A stretch of 64,000 bases of DNA, from NCBI GenBank assembly GCA_947631955.1, contig CANRNJ010000005.1, forward strand, positions 85,544 through 149,543. The letters are read 5' to 3'. Position 1 is the stretch's first letter. Each line of letters starts with the position of its first letter. Below, piece by piece: positions 2,949 to 10,755 of the stretch. The translations under genes were made by a program, and so were the position numbers. The notes below the pieces were generated by a model, which was not told where the DNA came from, made no database searches, and saw nothing but the letters and a program-made list of their open reading frames with translations. Source of the stretch: an uncultured Lachnospiraceae bacterium. Lineage in GTDB: Bacteria; Bacillota; Clostridia; Lachnospirales; Lachnospiraceae.

Positions 2949-3019
2949 GGAGCGTTCTCGCGACGGGGCGGCGCGAATCTCAAATTCGCGTCTGCCATCA
3001 GGGGAATTTGTGACGCTCC
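2949..3019. repeat. Dispersed structured intergenic element, copy 1
   Basis: GGAGCGTTCTCGCGACGG...GCCATCAGGGGAATTTGTGACGCTCC; shares both arms with 47534..47610; terminal GGAGCGT/ACGCTCC inverted repeat. Confidence 0.75.
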
Positions 3020-3139
3020 GGCACAAATTCTCGTGTGAAAAATAAGCTATCAAGCTTATTTTTCAATCTATTCTCCTCCAAAATCATTGTCCGGACATCC
3101 GGCCCCGCGCCGTCCTTCCCACTCTGCCGGGATACGCGC

Positions 3140-4123
3140 CTAAGATGCGGCGCTGTATTTCACGATCAGCAGTTCCACGCTCATCACATCGTCCAGTCTG
3201 CCCGTCTTGACCGCTTCTTCCGTTTCCACACAGTCTGTCAGCGCCCTGCGCAGATCGTCCTCCCGGAAACCGGCCGCCTGCGCCGCGTATTTTCGGACTA
3301 TAAAACCTGCCAGTCCCACCTTTTTTCCGATGTCTTCCACGCCATAGCCTTTGTTCCTGAGTTCCTTGACCTGAAGAAGCATATTGAACTGTCTGGCGAT
3401 CAGAAACAGGATACGCATGGGCGGTTCCCTGAGCGCCAGAAGATCATAGTACAGTTCCATCGCTTTCTTCTGTTTCTTTTCCGCCAGAGCGTTGATCATA
3501 TCAAAGATGCGGCTGCTCATCTGCCTTGTGCACACCGCCTCGATATCCTGCGCCGTGACCACCTCTTTGTCCATGCAGTAACACAGCAGTTTCTCCAGTT
3601 CGCCCCGGATGTTCACCATATCCGGGCCCGTTCTGTCCAGAAAAAAGTTTAAGTCGCTCTCTGTGATCTTTTTATTCTCCTTATTCAGGATGCCGAGTAT
3701 CCAGCGTTTCAGCGTCGTTTCGTCCTGCGCGGCGAACTCGATCGCACGCCCTTTGGCCGTCGCCGCCTTGTAGAGCCTGCTCCGCTTATCCACGGTCTGT
3801 TCCACAAATACAAAGTACGCCGTTTCACACGGGTCCTGCAGATACTCCGCAAGTTCTTCCCCGCCATGGGCAAACAGTCCGCTGTTTTCCAACAGGATCA
3901 CCCTGCGTTCAGCCAGAAAAGGCATGGTCTGCGCAAGGTCGATCAGTTCTCCCACCCGGATGTTTTTCCCCTCAAAATAGTGGAAGTTCATGGCGTCGCC
4001 GCCTGCAAGCAGCGCATCTTTCAGCCGGTTCTTATACTGGTTCCGCAGATACGCTTCTTCGCCGTAGAGGATATAGACCTGTTTCAGTTGACCCGATTTG
4101 ATTTCTTCCAACAGCTTCTTCAT
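3140..4123 (-). CDS. holA: DNA polymerase III delta subunit
   Basis: YILYGEEAYL, AQTMPFLAERRVILLEN, ELEKLLCY, IFDMINAL motifs; downstream of comEC. Confidence 0.95.
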   Translation of the reverse strand: MKKLLEEIKSGQLKQVYILYGEEAYLRNQYKNRLKDALLAGGDAMNFHYFEGKNIRVGELIDLAQTMPFLAERRVILLENSGLFAHGGEELAEYLQDPCETAYFVFVEQTVDKRSRLYKAATAKGRAIEFAAQDETTLKRWILGILNKENKKITESDLNFFLDRTGPDMVNIRGELEKLLCYCMDKEVVTAQDIEAVCTRQMSSRIFDMINALAEKKQKKAMELYYDLLALREPPMRILFLIARQFNMLLQVKELRNKGYGVEDIGKKVGLAGFIVRKYAAQAAGFREDDLRRALTDCVETEEAVKTGRLDDVMSVELLIVKYSAAS

Positions 4124-4135
4124 AAATTCAGTATA
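4124..4135 (-). promoter_or_regulatory. -10 box (TATACT) 6 nt upstream of holA ATG, probable leaderless promoter
   Basis: Minus strand reads ctcTATACTgaatttATG; no SD. Confidence 0.55.
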
Positions 4136-4213
4136 GAGTAGTTTGCGTTATAAATCAAATCCAATTTTCCACAGGTTTTGCACGGTCTAAATGCTATCCG
4201 CAATGAAACGCCC

Positions 4214-5548
4214 CTATCTCTCACACAGAAAAGGCAGCAGATAGATCGGCAGGTATCTGAGTCCGTCGGCTCTGTTCAGATCTTTCTGTGAAAGGATGAC
4301 GCTCCCGCCAGCATGACCCGCGTATTTCTTTCTGAATTCCATCAGGGATTCATGTCTGCCTGTCCCGGCGGACTTGACCTCCAGAGCCGTAATCTTCGTT
4401 CCCTGCGCCAGAAGGAAATCTATCTCATAATAATGCGTACTCCCCGTTTTCTCCCATGTATGATAATACAGTTCCCTTCCCGACGACGCTATGAGCTGAG
4501 CGGCGAGGTTTTCATACAAATACCCCAGATTGGCCGGCAGCTTATCCGACAGCAGCTTGACATAGATCTCATTTTCGGCCTCCGGTCTGTCGATAAACAT
4601 CAGCGTGATAAACAATCCCGTGTCTGCGACATACAACTTGTAGCTGTCCGTATCTTTTGTAAGCGGCAGACTGACTCTCGGATCTGTGACATTGTAGGAT
4701 GGCAGTACCGTCCCCGAATCTATCAGGTCATAAACAAGCGCTTCGTCTTTCGCCGTTTTCCTGCGTCCGACCGCCTGTGTCAACCGATAACGCCTGACTC
4801 CTCTGGAAAGCTGCGCCGGTATGGAATGATAGATCATAGCCAGCCTGCCTGACGGATCCAGCCGTTTGAAGTCGTCTTCATAGAGTCTGATGATCTGCCG
4901 CTTGATCTGGTCTATCATTGCAAAGTTTTCACCGTTCACATACGCCTCGACCGCCTGCGGCATACCGCCTACTGCCATATACAGTCTAAGGTCACGCATA
5001 AGTTTTCGATTCGTCTGCTGTCCGATGCTCCTGTTTTTCTCATATATCCCGCCAAGCGCCTCATAGTTTTTTCCCACCGCCAGACAAAATTCCTCATAAT
5101 CCATCGGGTATACATGGATCTTCATTTCCTCAGATGGGATCAGGATATTCTTGACATTCTTTTTAATCGAGATCAGCGATCCCGTTTCCAGATAATGGTA
5201 TCTGCCGTCCTTCACCAAATGCTTGATTGCCTGTCTGGCTTTTGGAAATAACTGCACTTCGTCAAAAATCACCAGCGATTCATGCTCATACAGATCGACG
5301 CCGCGCACCGCCTGCAGCCTTAAAAAAAACATATCCAGATCGTGAATATCGTCAAAACAGGCAAGTTCTTCGTTCGACGTCCGGGAAAAATCCACCAAAA
5401 TATAAGATCTGTACTCATTTGCAGCAAACCTTTCTGCAATCGTAGATTTTCCAACACGTCTTGCACCCTCCAACAGTACAGCGTATCGGTCGGCGTATTT
5501 TGTTTTCCATTGCACCAGGTCGTCATATACCTTCCGCCAAAAAAACAT
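4214..5548 (-). CDS. AAA_14/DUF4143-type ATP-binding protein with C-terminal PD-(D/E)XK-like motif
   Basis: Walker A GARRVGKST, Walker B VIFDEVQ, GGMPQAV, KLYVADTGL, C-terminal YEIDFLL...ALEVKS; start ATG 5548 (GTG 5557 alternative). Confidence 0.85.
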   Translation of the reverse strand: MFFWRKVYDDLVQWKTKYADRYAVLLEGARRVGKSTIAERFAANEYRSYILVDFSRTSNEELACFDDIHDLDMFFLRLQAVRGVDLYEHESLVIFDEVQLFPKARQAIKHLVKDGRYHYLETGSLISIKKNVKNILIPSEEMKIHVYPMDYEEFCLAVGKNYEALGGIYEKNRSIGQQTNRKLMRDLRLYMAVGGMPQAVEAYVNGENFAMIDQIKRQIIRLYEDDFKRLDPSGRLAMIYHSIPAQLSRGVRRYRLTQAVGRRKTAKDEALVYDLIDSGTVLPSYNVTDPRVSLPLTKDTDSYKLYVADTGLFITLMFIDRPEAENEIYVKLLSDKLPANLGYLYENLAAQLIASSGRELYYHTWEKTGSTHYYEIDFLLAQGTKITALEVKSAGTGRHESLMEFRKKYAGHAGGSVILSQKDLNRADGLRYLPIYLLPFLCER

Positions 5549-5571
5549 GCCGTCCACACCCCTTCAAATTC

Positions 5572-5736
5572 AGTGTTTACATTTCTTCAAAATAATAATA
5601 TTGCATTTCATGCATTTCTTCAAGATTTTTTTGTTCTGTTTTATGCATTTCTTCAAGATTTATTTATCCCATTTCTTGCATTTCTTCAAGATTTGTTTAT
5701 TCAATTTCATGCATTTCTTCCAAATTTTTATTTTGT
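5572..5736. repeat. Five tandem 33-bp units, consensus RTTTCATGCATTTCTTCAAGATTT-N9
   Basis: Core CATTTCTTC starts at 5580, 5613, 5646, 5679, 5712 (exact 33-bp period); lies between comEC stop and ATPase start. Confidence 0.92.
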
Positions 5737-5790
5737 TTCCCGTTCCCGGCCCGCTCGATCCTGCTCTCACATGAACAGACGCTCTCTTTT

Positions 5791-8145
5791 CTATCGGCAG
5801 TATTCCTCCACACGCACCCGTCCGCTTTTAACATACACCGTCACCGCGCCGCTCTCCTGCGTGCCGTATATCCGGCATCCCGCCTCTGTAAGTCTTTGCA
5901 GGAGTTCTTCGTGCGGATGGCCGTACCGGTTGTTCCTGCCGGAGGAGATCAGGGCGATCTTCGGCTCGACCGCGTTTAGGAAATCTCCGCCTGTGGAATT
6001 GCCCGACCCGTGGTGCGCCACTTTGAGCAGCGTGACGCCGCGCAGTCCTCTGTTCTTCAAATCCTGCATCGTCTTCGTCACCCTGTCCTCGCCTTCTCCT
6101 TCCAGATCGCCCGTAAAAAGGGCGCTGAAACCGCCGTAGGTCAGATACAGCACCGTCGAGTAGGCATTGACGTCCTCCGTATCCCATCCTGTTTCCGGAT
6201 GTATGCAGATTAACATAACTTTCCCGAATTTCAGGGTATCTCCTCTGCCCAGATACCGAACGTCGGCTCCGGCTCTGCCCGCAGCATCCTCCAGATCGTG
6301 ATACGCCTCATTCCTTCCGGTTTCTCCCACATCCGGCAGATACAGGGCCCCCACGGCGATCCTGTCCGTTTCCGGCTGTTCAAGCAGTTCGCGTATGCCG
6401 CTTATATGATCGCTGTCCGGATGGGTGACGACGACGGCATCAAGATATGACACGCCTTCATGCTTCAAATAAGGCATGATTTGATATTCCGCCACATTGC
6501 TCTTGTCGGAACTGCCGCCGTCGATCAGCAGATTCATGCCGCCGTCCTCGGTCAGACAGATGCAGTCGCCCTGCCCGACATCCAGCATCGTGATCTGCAG
6601 CCCCTGCGGCAGCCGGATCGACAGCACGCGCAGCGCGCACAGCACACACAGCCAGAAATGCATTTTGGACATCTTTCGGTTCCGCAGCACGGCTCCCGCA
6701 AGGATCGCCAGAAAAAAGGCGATCTGCCACGTTTCCGGGCATCCGGCGGCCCACCTGCTGCCCGGAATCCGGATAAAGAAGCCGCAGCACTTTTTGTAAA
6801 ACGCGAGCATCAGATGCACCGGGTAAGCCGCAGCCGTCCCAAGCGGCAGACAGCACGCCGCGACGCCCAGAGCGGCCAGTCCGCCCGCGAGCACAAACGT
6901 CATGCACGGGATCACAAGAAGATTCAGCAGGATCGAGTACGGCGGAAACTCGTAATAGAACCGCAGATATACCGGGAGCGTAGACAGAGAGATGGCGGTG
7001 CCCGACAGCAGCGCTTTCTCCCATCGGCCGGTGCCCAGCTGATTCTCCTGCGCCGCAGGGAGGAAGACACCGATCCCGCATATCGCGCCGAAGGAAAAAA
7101 GGAAGCCGCTGTGCTGAACATATAACGGCTGAGAGGACAGCATCAGAAGCGCGGCGGCGGCCAGTGCGGTCAGAAGGTCGTAAGTCCGCCCGATCAGTTC
7201 CGCGCCCAGATGCAGGCCGAACATGATATACGCCCTGAGCATGGAGATCCCCATGCCGGTCATGACTCCGTATCCGTACATGAACGCTGCCGACAATATT
7301 ATGTTGACCGTATCAGGAAATCTCATGCGCTTCATGATCCTGTGGAGCCCCATCCCGATAACGGACAGATGCAGGCCGCTGATCGCCAGTATATGCAGGA
7401 TCCCGTTCTGGCGGTACAATTCTTTGATATCGCCGTTCAAAGTTCCTTTTTCTCCGAGCAGCATCGCCTTTATGACAGAAGCGTCCTCCGGGTCGAAACA
7501 GTGGTCCGCCAAAAGGCCCAGATACTCTTTCAGCCGGTTCAGTTTATCCCGAAACACGCTGTACGAGGCGCTCCGGGCAAGACAACGGCAGTTCATGATC
7601 CTGCCCTGCTGCCCCATGATGCGGTAATAGTCCGCCGAATCAAATTCGCCGGGATTGGACGCATGGGTAAAAGCGCGGAAGTCCCCCGCAACGACAACAA
7701 GGCTGCCGACGGGCGGCATATCGTCCGCGTCCATATAACACAAAACGCCTTCGATCCCTTCCGTATCCTGATCTTGCAGAGTTTTTCGGTTTTCTTTCCA
7801 GAAATGATGCAGTCCGCGCTGTGAAAGCTGATCAGAACGTAACAAGAATTGCTCCAGACTTGAAATATGACTTTCCGTAAGGACTGCTGCTTCCGATAAG
7901 GTAACGACCGGTGTTTTTCCGGCCGCCGTTTCTTTGTACTCCGTGTACTTTACATATCCCGCCGCCGTGACGGTTTTCCGGTCCAGTTCTTCATAGACCG
8001 GCGCTCCCCGCACCGTACATGCAGCGGCCGCCACCGCTGCCGCAAAGGCAAGCCCCGCAAGGCACAGCGGTCTTCTGACTGATAACAGATTAATCCTGAT
8101 CGCCTCCTCCCGGCACAAGCAGATCCAGATTCCGCTCAAACACAT
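5791..8145 (-). CDS. comEC: DNA internalization competence protein ComEC/Rec2
   Basis: HILAISGLHLS, GFLFSF, LLNLLVIP, metallo-beta-lactamase domain (LDVGQGD, THPDSDH, KVAHHGS, NRYGHP); true start uncertain (probably near 8094-8070). Confidence 0.93.
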   Translation of the reverse strand: MCLSGIWICLCREEAIRINLLSVRRPLCLAGLAFAAAVAAAACTVRGAPVYEELDRKTVTAAGYVKYTEYKETAAGKTPVVTLSEAAVLTESHISSLEQFLLRSDQLSQRGLHHFWKENRKTLQDQDTEGIEGVLCYMDADDMPPVGSLVVVAGDFRAFTHASNPGEFDSADYYRIMGQQGRIMNCRCLARSASYSVFRDKLNRLKEYLGLLADHCFDPEDASVIKAMLLGEKGTLNGDIKELYRQNGILHILAISGLHLSVIGMGLHRIMKRMRFPDTVNIILSAAFMYGYGVMTGMGISMLRAYIMFGLHLGAELIGRTYDLLTALAAAALLMLSSQPLYVQHSGFLFSFGAICGIGVFLPAAQENQLGTGRWEKALLSGTAISLSTLPVYLRFYYEFPPYSILLNLLVIPCMTFVLAGGLAALGVAACCLPLGTAAAYPVHLMLAFYKKCCGFFIRIPGSRWAAGCPETWQIAFFLAILAGAVLRNRKMSKMHFWLCVLCALRVLSIRLPQGLQITMLDVGQGDCICLTEDGGMNLLIDGGSSDKSNVAEYQIMPYLKHEGVSYLDAVVVTHPDSDHISGIRELLEQPETDRIAVGALYLPDVGETGRNEAYHDLEDAAGRAGADVRYLGRGDTLKFGKVMLICIHPETGWDTEDVNAYSTVLYLTYGGFSALFTGDLEGEGEDRVTKTMQDLKNRGLRGVTLLKVAHHGSGNSTGGDFLNAVEPKIALISSGRNNRYGHPHEELLQRLTEAGCRIYGTQESGAVTVYVKSGRVRVEEYCR

Positions 8146-9124
8146 TGTTCAGATCGATCTTTTCCCGGTAGGAAACGTTGGTTTCGCCGTTTACGCTGAT
8201 CTGGACTTTATTGACGTCGGACAGTTCCACCAGTGAATTTGTGATGGAATATATCGTCACTTCCGGATTCACACTGTATGCCTGATTCAAAAAATTTTCA
8301 TCCAAGTTTACATAACATACCCCGTCGTTGACCGTCACGCTGACGATCTTCGTCGCCGGATTCACCGTGGGATAAGCATCCTGCGATTCCGGACCTCCCA
8401 CCAGTTTCTCCACCACCAGTTTTTCCAGAGAGATGTTGCTGCTGTATACTACGTTTCTACGGTTCTCCTCCACCAGACCCGTGCCGTCCTTATTGGCGAA
8501 ATACAGATGCAGGGTGGTCTGCTCATAGGCGTTGATCTCCGTGCCCGCATTATCGATGAACAGATCCGGGGACATCGTGCCGATCGCCGTGCCGGAACTG
8601 TCTAAGAGCATGTCGCCCTGAATCGTAAAAGACACATGATCGATCCCGTCGATCTGGGTCAGAGTCCTTACGACCGCTGCCCTCGACAGCACTTCTTTGA
8701 TGCTGTCCATCTCATTGTAGCGCTCGCTGAAATTCATCGTCAGCTGCCCGTTGTCCAACGTATAGCCCAACAGTTCCATGCTGCCCGTAAGCGGCGGCTT
8801 GTACTCCAGTTTGGCCGGGACCGTTGACAGCTGTTCGATCAGTTCCGCCAGCAGGCTTTCCGTATCCTGCGCTGTGCTGACGTAATTGCCGGTGACTGTT
8901 TTTGTTTCATCGTTGTTTACATAATATATCTCATATGTTTTCCCGCCCTCCGGCTCTTCTCTGCGGCCGCACGCCGTGCCAAGCATCATGACAGCGGCTG
9001 TGCAGATCCACAGCGCGGCGGATCTTATGATTCTTTTATAGGTCCTTTCATGGATCTTTTTATTTTTCAGGATCTCTTCGATCCTGCCGATAACTCTTTT
9101 CTTTTCCATTTCTGCCACATCCAA
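8090..9124 (-). CDS. GerMN domain lipoprotein
   Basis: Lipobox-like MMLGTAC; two GerMN-like repeats (AAVVRTLTQIDGIDHVSFTIQG; SITNSLVELSDVNKVQISVNG); start uncertain (9109 possible). Confidence 0.82.
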   Translation of the reverse strand: MDVAEMEKKRVIGRIEEILKNKKIHERTYKRIIRSAALWICTAAVMMLGTACGRREEPEGGKTYEIYYVNNDETKTVTGNYVSTAQDTESLLAELIEQLSTVPAKLEYKPPLTGSMELLGYTLDNGQLTMNFSERYNEMDSIKEVLSRAAVVRTLTQIDGIDHVSFTIQGDMLLDSSGTAIGTMSPDLFIDNAGTEINAYEQTTLHLYFANKDGTGLVEENRRNVVYSSNISLEKLVVEKLVGGPESQDAYPTVNPATKIVSVTVNDGVCYVNLDENFLNQAYSVNPEVTIYSITNSLVELSDVNKVQISVNGETNVSYREKIDLNNVFERNLDLLVPGGGDQD

Positions 9125-9220
9125 ATCCGTTATGCGGCGGGCGCCGCATGATGTTTCCGCCCAAATCCGTTACAGCTTCCCTGCGCCGCTTGACATTTCT
9201 GTCCCAATCCGCTACAGCCG
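9121..9220. repeat. Three degenerate direct repeats (CCAAATCCGTTA-like, about 40-42 bp period)
   Basis: ccaaatccgtta at 9121 and 9161, cccaatccgcta at about 9203. Confidence 0.55.
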
Positions 9221-9261
9221 CTCGGCGCTTGGGCCGGACTCCGGCCGTTTGGCGCCCGTCC

Positions 9262-10755
9262 TTATTTATCGGTTCCGATATAGGAAAGCGGTATCTTTAC
9301 CGTAAAGACCGTGCCCTCATCTTCGACGCTCTCTACCTTGATCGTCCCCCGGTGCATCAACACGGCGTTTTTGGCGATCGCCAGTCCGAGCCCCGTGCCG
9401 CCGATCTCTCTGGAACGGGACTTGTCCACGCGGTAGAATCTCTCATAAATATGGTCCAGTGAGTCTTCGGGAATACCGATGCCCGAATCGGCCACCACAA
9501 CGGTAAAAAACTGATGATCGGCGTCCAGCGTCACTTTCACCCAACCGTGCTCTTTGTTATACTTGATCGCATTTTCCACCAGATTGGATACGATAAGCGT
9601 GAGTTTTACTTCATCCACGGCCGCTGTCACGGGTCTGACGCTCTCATATACAAGTTCTACATCCCGCTTCTGGGCAATGGGCCTCAGCCGCCGCATGATC
9701 AGTTCCACCAGCACGTTGACGTCCACTTCTGTGATCGTCAGATCCGCCGCCGTGCGGTCCATTTTGACCAAAGACAAAAGATCCGTAATGATCTTGTCTT
9801 CTCTCTCGATCTCTTTGGCGATATCTTCCATAAACTCCTGATAGACTTCTATCGGCACGTCATTCTGATTGATCAGGGAATCCGCCAGCACTTTCATGGA
9901 GGTGATCGGGGTCTTCAATTCGTGGGACACGTTGGAAACAAATTCCTGTCTGGAATCGTCCAGCACTTTCATCCTGCCCAGCACCCGGTTAAAGGCATCT
10001 CCGATGCGCTCCGTTTCTATCACGTCCGTGACCGATATGGGATCGTTGGTATAACCTTCCTGCGCCTGATCGAGCGCAAGCGTGATCTTTTCAAAGGGCC
10101 GGATCAGCACGCGGGCCGCCAGAACGGAAGCCACCACGATCGCCACGATAACGATCGCCTCTATGATCAGCGTCTGGCGGTTCAGCGCATCCAGCGTGGC
10201 CATGATGTTATCCGTAGAAACGCTTACCAGCATAACGCCGCGCATCACTTCCTTCTTGTCCCCCGCGCCGCTGCCTTCGCCGAAATCAGCCGTTTCCGTG
10301 ATCGGGATCGTCATTTCGATATATCCGTTGTCGCGGTCGTATTTGCTGGTGCTCTCTCCTCTGGCGCAGCGCACCACTTCCTCGGAGATGATGGTTTTGT
10401 TCTCGCTGATACCGTAGGTGTCCTTGACGATGCGCAGGTCACTGTTGATAACCATGACACGTCCGTCATAAAGTGTGGATAACTGGTTGACTTCGGCATT
10501 GACCACTTCCGAGGAAGTGTCCTGCAGATAGTGATAGGTAATCAGATGGTTGGCCAGAATACGCAGCTGCATAGTGATATCGGAAGTTCTGACACCGACT
10601 GCGCGCCGCTCGTAATTCTGCATGACCGCATGACGCATACTGACACAAGGAACCAATCCGACAACAAGCATGAGCAGAAAGATCCTTGTTTTAAGACTTC
10701 GTAAGAAAGTAAATCTATGTATGTTTTTTCCCGCCTCAAAGATACTCGTTTTCAC
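9262..10755 (-). CDS. Sensor histidine kinase (HAMP, HisKA, HATPase_c)
   Basis: FVSNVSHELKTP H-box, NLVENAIKY, DSGIGIP, FYRVDKSR, GTGLGL. Confidence 0.95.
   Translation of the reverse strand: MKTSIFEAGKNIHRFTFLRSLKTRIFLLMLVVGLVPCVSMRHAVMQNYERRAVGVRTSDITMQLRILANHLITYHYLQDTSSEVVNAEVNQLSTLYDGRVMVINSDLRIVKDTYGISENKTIISEEVVRCARGESTSKYDRDNGYIEMTIPITETADFGEGSGAGDKKEVMRGVMLVSVSTDNIMATLDALNRQTLIIEAIVIVAIVVASVLAARVLIRPFEKITLALDQAQEGYTNDPISVTDVIETERIGDAFNRVLGRMKVLDDSRQEFVSNVSHELKTPITSMKVLADSLINQNDVPIEVYQEFMEDIAKEIEREDKIITDLLSLVKMDRTAADLTITEVDVNVLVELIMRRLRPIAQKRDVELVYESVRPVTAAVDEVKLTLIVSNLVENAIKYNKEHGWVKVTLDADHQFFTVVVADSGIGIPEDSLDHIYERFYRVDKSRSREIGGTGLGLAIAKNAVLMHRGTIKVESVEDEGTVFTVKIPLSYIGTDK

Follow-up and report, generated by a model that had tools for sequence, protein, structure and literature searches.

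The window analysed here is a 64,000-nt stretch of contig CANRNJ010000005.1 from an uncultured Lachnospiraceae bacterium. It carries on its minus strand a gene for an ATPase-nuclease of the AAA_14/DUF4143 type, classed by PADLOC as PDC-S01, which is preceded by an array of short direct repeats at an exact 33-bp period. The flanking genes are identified by Pfam as comEC (Competence and Lactamase_B domains) and holA (DNA_pol3_delta). The intergenic gap that separates the ATPase start codon (5548) from the comEC stop (5791) is 242 nt long (5549-5790), and the array takes up about 165 nt of it. The suggestion, made from the sequence alone, that the array is a phased cis-element of the ATPase gene is borne out by its accompanying the gene through about 80 unrelated genomic contexts.

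The array and the ATPase-nuclease gene

The features of the locus are as follows.

5695..5727, minus strand: repeat unit 1, core TGGAAGAAATGCA at 5710-5722; found by Tandem Repeats Finder (TRF), 19-mer match and repeat search
5662..5694, minus strand: repeat unit 2, core TTGAAGAAATGCA at 5677-5689; found by TRF, 19-mer match and repeat search
5629..5661, minus strand: repeat unit 3, core TTGAAGAAATGCA at 5644-5656; found by TRF, 19-mer match and repeat search
5596..5628, minus strand: repeat unit 4, with TTGAAG (5618-5623) as predicted -35 and, 17 nt downstream, TATTAT (5595-5600) as predicted -10
5563..5595, minus strand: repeat unit 5, degenerate, core TTGAAGAAATGTA at 5578-5590; spans the predicted transcription start and early leader
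5559..5565, minus strand: putative ribosome-binding site GAAGGGG, 10 nt before the ATG, assigned by reading the sequence
4214..5548, minus strand: AAA_14/DUF4143 ATPase-nuclease gene (PADLOC PDC-S01), 444 aa; ATG at 5548, stop codon at 4214-4216
5444..5467, minus strand: Walker A motif GARRVGKS, residues 28-35; G28, A29, R30, G33 and K34 invariant
5252..5275, minus strand: Walker B region IFDEVQ, residues 92-99; D96, E97 and Q99 invariant
4628..4846, minus strand: predicted winged helix, residues ~235-307, built from a beta hairpin and three helices; the part of the protein that may read the repeat core
4373..4426, minus strand: PD-(D/E)xK nuclease core YEIDF...LEVK; E375-x-D377 and E390-V-K392 invariant

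TRF places the array at 5580-5728, with a period of 33, 4.5 copies, 79% matches and no indels, and a repeat search of the window returned start-to-start spacings of 33, 33 and 33. The minus-strand 19-mer TTGAAGAAATGCATGAAAT matches at 5605-5623, 5638-5656, 5671-5689 and 5704-5722 with 0-2 mismatches; these array copies are its sole matches in the window, and four matches were reached in none of 100 shuffles. On the gene strand a unit reads AAATCTTGAAGAAATGCATGAAAT followed by about nine variable bases, with TTGAAGAAATGCA as its core. An earlier, sequence-only reading of this DNA had described five units at exactly 33 bp. The period stands, but the units are not five equal ones: the span 5563-5730 holds four good units and a degenerate fifth (TTGAAGAAATGTA, at -42), which is in phase with the other four. 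The single sigma-70-type match of the intergenic region lies within the array, the -35 (TTGAAG) being in unit 4 and the -10 (TATTAT) following a 17-nt spacer, so that transcription is predicted to start in unit 5.

The array was also considered as a CRISPR (clustered regularly interspaced short palindromic repeats) array, a candidate that was rejected: whereas these have repeats of 23-50 nt, unique spacers of similar length and cas genes, the arrays described here have 2-5 units with a conserved part of 13-24 nt and a variable part of 9-20 nt, a promoter inside and no cas genes nearby. On the plus strand, a 75-aa open reading frame (ORF) at 5547-5774 crosses the array in antisense, its product being a hydrophobic repeat of 11 residues (HFMHFFKI...); the antisense frame is free of stops in 39 of 53 arrays. 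By our own rough estimate, such stop-free frames fit the T-rich, stop-poor complement of the core, of which the 75-aa ORF is most likely an artefact, and an antisense coding repeat is ruled out by the 32- and 34-bp periods found in other clades. Within the gene, the Walker B codons TTTGACGAAGTGCA (window ~5253-5265, +283 of the gene) mimic the repeat core at two mismatches. This look-alike recurs in many homologues, lies 5 bp off the array phase and is probably a coding coincidence; another, at +415, is also present in many loci, and core-like sites at both positions were discarded as array members, being out-of-phase coding look-alikes.

The encoded protein is a full-length match to the PADLOC hidden Markov model PDLC04786 (E 4.5e-85, residues 1-440 on positions 1-431 of a 439-position profile), and the start at 5548 is backed by homologues beginning MFFW or MYFK. 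Pfam detects AAA_14 at residues 24-158 (1.2e-21; 77.4 bits, gathering cut-off 27) and, C-terminal to the ATPase, DUF4143 at residues 229-396 (7.9e-14; 52.1 bits, gathering cut-off 28.1), and nothing besides; NCBIfam gave no match, and comparison with PDB sequences gave no match to any solved structure. DUF4143 has been placed in the PD-(D/E)xK superfamily (PMC3424549). The Walker A and B motifs and the C-terminal nuclease-like motif noticed from the sequence alone are confirmed by these domain matches and by the invariance of the residues listed above in an alignment of 58 sequences (23-84% identity), which was also used for an AlphaFold2 model.

The model (predicted local distance difference test score, pLDDT, 87.3; predicted template modelling score, pTM, 0.87) consists of an AAA+ core (1-145), a helical lid (151-230), a winged helix (~235-307; helices 235-248, 256-260 and 266-278, strands 281-287 and 298-307) and a C-terminal alpha/beta nuclease domain. 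As confidently modelled, then, the protein is an Orc1/Cdc6-like AAA+ ATPase with a winged helix and a PD-(D/E)xK nuclease. Its best Foldseek matches in the PDB are the archaeal Orc1/Cdc6-origin DNA complexes 2qby_B and 2v1u_A (E ~1e-5 over ~385 aligned columns), with TM-scores to Orc1/Cdc6 structures of ~0.3, followed by Avs4, MalT, clamp loaders and MuB.

Distribution and diversity of the arrays

A scan of a genome collection recovered 80 loci encoding proteins 63-93% identical to the window ATPase. Their hosts are Lachnospiraceae, Erysipelotrichaceae and spirochaetes (including the isolate Bullifex porci), together with bins labelled Bacteroidaceae, Anaerovibrio and Succinivibrionaceae. Many loci come from metagenome bins, whose single taxon labels may err, and the spread across phyla is supported by isolate genomes and plasmids; Archaea, with about a quarter of the family, lie outside the sampled set. 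The prospect that homologues would lack upstream arrays, against which the sequence-only reading had set its proposal, did not materialise: a strict 33-bp chain of at least two units is present in 74 of 81 loci, with two units in 19 of these, three in 39, four in 13 and five in three. Allowing up to two mismatches, the 13-nt core occurs 224 times in 31.6 kb of ATPase-upstream DNA versus 97 times in the other 1.77 Mb, both strands counted. Such core-based counts are biased to the query word, but TRF and period scans are not, and motif-free TRF detected arrays of period 31-35 in 46 of 80 upstream regions versus about eight in the other 812 kb, a background figure that excludes two arrays belonging to paralogues of the ATPase family.

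Successive upstream core matches are mostly exactly 33 bp apart, the exceptions being a few spacings of 32 or 34 bp, multiples (66, 67, 99 and 100) and a handful of irregular spacings (L022, L057 and L064). Core and spacing are under constraint while the number of units varies freely: in a strain with 99.5% identity over 2.2 kb, exactly 33 bp are missing within 5695-5744, and locus L001, with 93% protein identity and the comEC context of the window, has three units versus five. Homology between the DNA of different loci runs from the first unit (-100 to -190) through the stop codon and no further. A conserved partner gene, for instance a separate regulator, was sought and rejected, the largest neighbour family reaching 7 of 81 loci, in positions that differ between them. 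With no conserved neighbour and homology limited to this segment, the inherited unit is therefore the array plus the gene.

Comparison of 222 units showed that the positions of TTGAAGAAATGCA are 68-100% conserved, 9 of the 13 at 91% or more. AAAAT precedes the core and a W-rich (A or T) stretch follows it, and the remainder of the unit is near random; A/T tracts recur about every 11 bp. Family-wide, the penultimate unit is followed at the -10 position by a hexamer with the consensus TATAAT, whereas for upstream units this consensus is AAAAAA, a -10-like hexamer following 42 of 74 penultimate, 29 of 74 last and 19 of 74 upstream units. The conserved AAATGCA beyond the -35 is not needed by sigma-70 and points to a second reader of the array DNA. 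Metatranscriptome contigs, of low depth and broken at the repeats, show that the ATPase gene is transcribed.

The central result is that the same architecture occurs with different words across the wider family. Three paralogues that sit a few kb from a main-family copy bearing the TTGAAGAAATGCA array, on the same contig, each have an array of their own: GAGAAAACGTGA in L011 (three units, period 33), TGCAYTTTTGACA in L034 (three units, period 32) and CTCATAAAATGTG in L018 (three units, period 32). Single genomes therefore hold several word-protein pairs, and this clade specificity of the word inside a genome makes it unlikely that the array is read by a sigma factor or by a host factor common to all copies. 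The word is kept within a subfamily, as in P0217 (83% identical to the L018 type; four CTCATAAAATGTGA units, period 32), and drifts with divergence, as in P0322 (62% identical to the L011 type; TGGATTCGTG). Relatives at 26-62% identity in IMG/VR have further words, nearly always in three or four units at 33 bp (TGGAAAAATGTGA, ATTCGCTYGAAAAARTGTA, AAAAAGTGCAAAA, AAAATTGCGATTTTG, ACATTTTCCNNTTTCCGACAAA, TTTGAGANNNTAGCC, ACCCTTGATTTGGTGTAT, CAACCCCTTAAAAAGTTGCA, TAGAAAAAGTGTAGAA and TTCATTTTATGTGTGTA); a search of the same database with the L034-type paralogue gave no relatives.

At 23-62% identity, arrays in Bacteroidota, Vibrio, Acinetobacter and Criblamydia have other cores, and the period is still 32-34 bp; plasmid-borne members at 23-28% identity extend the arrays beyond Firmicutes and Bacteroidota. 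A Vibrio coralliilyticus plasmid (L161) carries three units of 32-bp period, whose core TTTTATGCGCATAAAA is a palindrome, and an Acinetobacter baumannii plasmid (L162) two units at 32 bp with a core of the Vibrio kind, the palindrome CACTTTTATGCGCATAAAAGTG. Unlike the asymmetric core of the window, these cores are perfectly palindromic, which hints at a dimer per unit in that clade. The Criblamydia member has 3.5 units at 32 bp, and in Bacteroides cellulosilyticus a TAnnTTTG promoter motif is flanked by two copies at a distance of 66 bp.

When periods from 20 to 50 bp were scanned without regard to any motif, the best one was 32-34 in 39 of 43 upstream regions, among them 24 of the 27 from outside the main family, compared with 13 of 400 AT-rich control windows from the same contigs (two of the 400 at comparable strength). 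Core similarity is 0.86 for protein pairs of at least 65% identity and falls to background (~0.62) below 50%, and a Mantel test of core similarity against protein identity gave 0/2000, or 2/2000 without the main family. The core thus changes with the protein clade while the period of ~33 bp is kept. What needs explaining is the full turnover of the word with persistence of phase, unit number and position.

The relation of array to promoter also differs by clade. In the window family the -35 is part of the core; in the L018, L011 and P0322 types an extended -10 is formed by the GTGA at the end of the last core together with the -10 that immediately follows it; in Bacteroidota types a Bacteroides-type TAnnTTTG falls within the penultimate unit and one more unit follows. 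In L128 and L129 a separate promoter, TTGACG-17-TAAAAT, comes shortly after the end of the array, and in L098 it lies between TTGACT-17-TATAAT and the start codon. These differences argue for an operator and against a sigma-factor element.

Gene exchange and gene loss

The sequence-only reading had placed the gene as an insertion between comEC and holA. Both flanks are as it named them, but insertion at that junction was not confirmed: in the three related loci L001-L003, which share comEC upstream, the 6 kb downstream of the ATPase do not contain holA, and no empty comEC-holA site turned up in the homologue survey and array search. Downstream of the gene a hybrid histidine kinase and a GGDEF-EAL protein are encoded in L003, and L001 has four ORFs without a Pfam match; the region after comEC is variable in the clade of the window. 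Relative to L001-L003, the ATPase has 93-95% amino-acid identity versus 66-75% for the adjacent comEC, and a ratio of non-synonymous to synonymous divergence (dN/dS) of ~0.06-0.1, so the gene is under purifying selection. Synonymous divergence (dS) of the ATPase (4214-5548) in pairs among the window, L001 and L002 is 0.24-0.56, less than half that of comEC (5791-8145; 0.88-1.29), which suggests that the gene was exchanged, at a conserved site, after the host lineages split, or else an unusual synonymous constraint.

Directly upstream of comEC, at 8090-9124 on the minus strand, lies a gene for a protein with two Germane (sporulation/germination) domains, which fits a spore-forming Lachnospiraceae host. 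With comEC, holA and the Germane-domain protein as flanks there is no defence-island context in the window, and its GC skew is monotonic over 1-12 kb, the context giving no hint of a replication origin. Elsewhere, at locus L049, a 597-aa protein encoded about 1.2 kb from the ATPase (8559-10352, minus strand) resembles by eye the DUF1703/PDDEXK_9-type 'AAA-ATPase-like + PD-(D/E)xK' family.

An exact double-core search of metagenome contigs returned 21 loci. An ATPase match lies just downstream of the array in 12, two of which are visible pseudogenes behind intact arrays: L153 breaks off after ~37 residues, and the array of L144 is joined directly to ~residue 140. The remaining nine are without a detectable ATPase, with too little downstream contig in L142 and L155 to exclude the gene; they comprise seven two-unit arrays (L141, L142, L143, L146, L149, L157 and L160), the three-unit L155 and the dubious L152. 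L157/L143 represents an empty allele of the L012/L008 locus, without unit 3, the gene and 67 nt: homology ends 6 nt past the core of unit 2 and resumes 67 nt past the stop codon, the space being filled by 36 nt of unrelated sequence (L012 5947/7400 versus L157 2210-2246). Such solo arrays, most of them two perfect units, are apparently relics of frequent gene loss, though they may conceivably be landing pads or trans sites instead. Unit copies forming the ends of a mobile element were considered and rejected, a search for a unit copy at the 3' end of the cassette having given only weak matches in 3 of 81 loci.

Function of the array and comparison with known systems

The array is probably, though far from certainly, the ATPase gene's own promoter-operator, docking one protomer per unit and serving negative autoregulation. 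Each unit, a ~13-bp clade-specific core with an A/T-rich flank, would dock one ATPase protomer, whose Orc1/Cdc6-like winged helix would read the core. As units are three helical turns apart (33 bp being 3.1 turns and 32 bp 3.05), protomers would line up in head-to-tail order along a single DNA face, which would allow ATP-dependent contacts between neighbouring AAA+ domains and so cooperative binding. With the -35 in unit 4 and the start in unit 5, a loaded array should cover both and block RNA polymerase, and the ATPase-nuclease would thereby be held at a low, self-limited level. It is reasonably likely that the reader is the encoded ATPase itself, since it is the sole co-inherited gene, the word is clade-specific within a genome, the modelled protein has an initiator-like DNA-binding module, and the array phase is conserved where the protein architecture is conserved. 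A phased operator of about three helical turns, proposed earlier from the sequence, provides the best fit to the promoter inside the array and to the winged helix predicted by the model.

Several observations weigh against this reading. In the window protein the predicted winged helix has an acidic third helix, an unusual property in a recognition helix, and just 57% of arrays have a -10-like hexamer after the penultimate unit. The position of the array relative to the promoter is not uniform (upstream in L128/L129, downstream in L098), and its effect may not be repression in every clade. Also, two-unit arrays persist without the ATPase gene, and covariation of core and protein would be expected from simple co-inheritance of linked DNA as well.

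It is conceivable, though unlikely, that the ATPase binds the units and that regulation is secondary, the array being a loading, nucleation or parking site, as an origin recognition box (ORB) is for Orc1 or parS for ParB. The AAA+ oligomer would then assemble or stay inactive on self DNA, and the nuclease would act elsewhere once released or activated. The Orc1/Cdc6-like architecture with its best matches among origin-bound complexes, the clade-dependent position of the array and the two-unit arrays that outlive the gene, and could be trans sites for paralogues, agree with such a role; yet arrays always lie immediately 5' of the gene, usually overlapping promoter elements, and the core is found nowhere else in the 64-kb window. 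A tandemly duplicated promoter with no dedicated binder, used by RNA polymerase alone, in which in-phase A/T tracts would provide curved, UP-element-like DNA and unit number would tune expression, is quite improbable. It would account for the composition of the window-family unit (-35 + 17 + -10 + 4 = 33 bp), for arrays such as L014 that repeat the full TTGAAG-17-TATAAT, for unit numbers that differ between near-identical strains and for A/T tracts every ~11 bp. It does not account for conservation running 7 nt past the -35 hexamer (AAATGCA), for cores in other clades that are not promoter-like (for instance CAACCCCTTAAAAAGTTGCA, which precedes a canonical promoter distinct from it, and the palindrome TTTTATGCGCATAAAA), for a period kept in hosts with sigma-70-type and with Bacteroides-type promoters, or for the different words of paralogues in one genome.

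That the array should be a recombination or attachment site of a single-gene cassette, with the PD-(D/E)xK nuclease as its own mobility enzyme, is very improbable. Neither a unit nor other conserved sequence marks the 3' end of the cassette (3/81 weak matches), the 36 nt of unrelated filler in the empty allele leave no clean junction or target duplication, and the pseudogenes L144 and L153 point to ordinary decay; these stand against the single-gene island in about 80 contexts and several phyla, the two units retained without the gene in L157/L143 and an ATPase dS less than half that of comEC between the same genomes. Hardly any credence attaches to an array acting as RNA, be it a repeated leader or a small RNA that scaffolds or guides the ATPase, in spite of the predicted transcription of the last unit and of L098, where a canonical promoter precedes the entire array and the start codon follows it. 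The RNA scaffold offered as an option in the sequence-only reading is unsupported on several counts: a search of window positions 3000-9000 with Rfam 15 covariance models gave no match at E up to 1, the fold z-score of array plus leader (-1.65) is not unusual, and the variable parts are short and not protospacer-like. Moreover, with the window-family promoter inside the array, the predicted transcription start comes after most of the array, so that units 1-3 should not be in the mRNA.

Beyond autoregulation, it is possible but doubtful that PDC-S01 is a sequence-programmed nuclease, in which the winged helix would read a word of ~13-20 bp, the promoter array would be a self-copy, and the oligomer would assemble on three-turn-spaced sites before cutting word-bearing DNA. 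A search of IMG/VR for the cognate double core on phage contigs, as a possible target, gave no matches. If this were true, the promoters of tens of thousands of these proteins could reveal their DNA specificity, and the phased array would set the geometry for assembly of the AAA+ oligomer besides throttling the gene. The family would then represent a new type of sequence-directed nuclease, ATP-dependent and needing no methylase, that acts in defence or as a selfish element.

Few unexplained gene families of bacteria and archaea are as abundant as PDC-S01: one survey, counting ~29,500 bacterial and 10,000 archaeal copies, ranks it fourth among 'defence' calls in prokaryotes by frequency (PMC12988326), and it is the most frequent single locus in rumen genomes (PMC13356809). 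According to the literature searched, PDC families are unvalidated candidates proposed through 'guilt by embedding'; E. coli B with one PDC-S01 representative was not protected from T4, T5 or T7 (PMC12881386), and COG1373 is tabulated among genes characterised as moving horizontally between gut bacteria (PMC10782964). A defence role of the window gene is hypothetical, and a selfish or addiction-type role stands on an equal footing. The literature found on PDC-S01 reports no mechanism, regulation or cis-element for the family, and the arrays are not described in the literature searched, a limited set and so not proof of novelty. The clade-specific phased promoter array is the family's first concrete, testable molecular handle, predicting a DNA word per protein, one protomer per three helical turns and an autoregulatory loop. 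The arrays would also supply naturally orthogonal protein-operator pairs, and relic two-unit arrays mark former gene sites.

Among known systems, the window protein is a full-length member of PDC-S01 (AAA_14 + DUF4143; COG1373, 'predicted AAA+ ATPase'), a single-gene, horizontally mobile and multi-copy family, to whose record the promoter array of the window is an addition. Orc1/Cdc6 initiators and their ORB sites are alike in that an AAA+ module is followed by a winged helix, here as predicted by the model, and that the gene lies beside several non-palindromic boxes in A/T-rich DNA. In Orc1-ORB structures one monomer per box contacts DNA through both its winged helix and its AAA+ domain, over two to three helical turns, a footprint that fits a 33-bp unit of conserved core plus A/T-rich flank. 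In contrast to those initiators, the window protein matches no Orc1/Cdc6 sequence model in Pfam or NCBIfam and has an extra C-terminal PD-(D/E)xK nuclease; its boxes are tandem, head to tail and at a fixed 33 bp, rather than dispersed or inverted round an unwinding element, and its locus is a chromosomal single-gene island with a context that gives no sign of an origin.

Plasmid iterons, and the DnaA boxes of the dnaA promoter, mediate autorepression through sites that overlap the promoter, with a repeat word specific to the replicon. PDC-S01 arrays are similarly phased direct repeats beside the gene of their (here presumed) binding protein, with a clade-specific word. They differ from iterons in spacing (32-34 bp versus typically ~22 bp), and the window protein does not belong to the Rep or DnaA families, the window has no replicon context and the loci are mostly chromosomal. 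MalT and other STAND proteins also combine a P-loop ATPase with a DNA-binding domain, and the likeness would extend to cooperative assembly on directly repeated promoter boxes; MalT and Avs proteins are among the Foldseek matches of the model (8bob_C, 8dgf_A). MalT, however, is ligand-responsive and activates other operons via a LuxR-type helix-turn-helix domain, whereas the window ATPase has its own promoter as its sole linked target and carries a nuclease.

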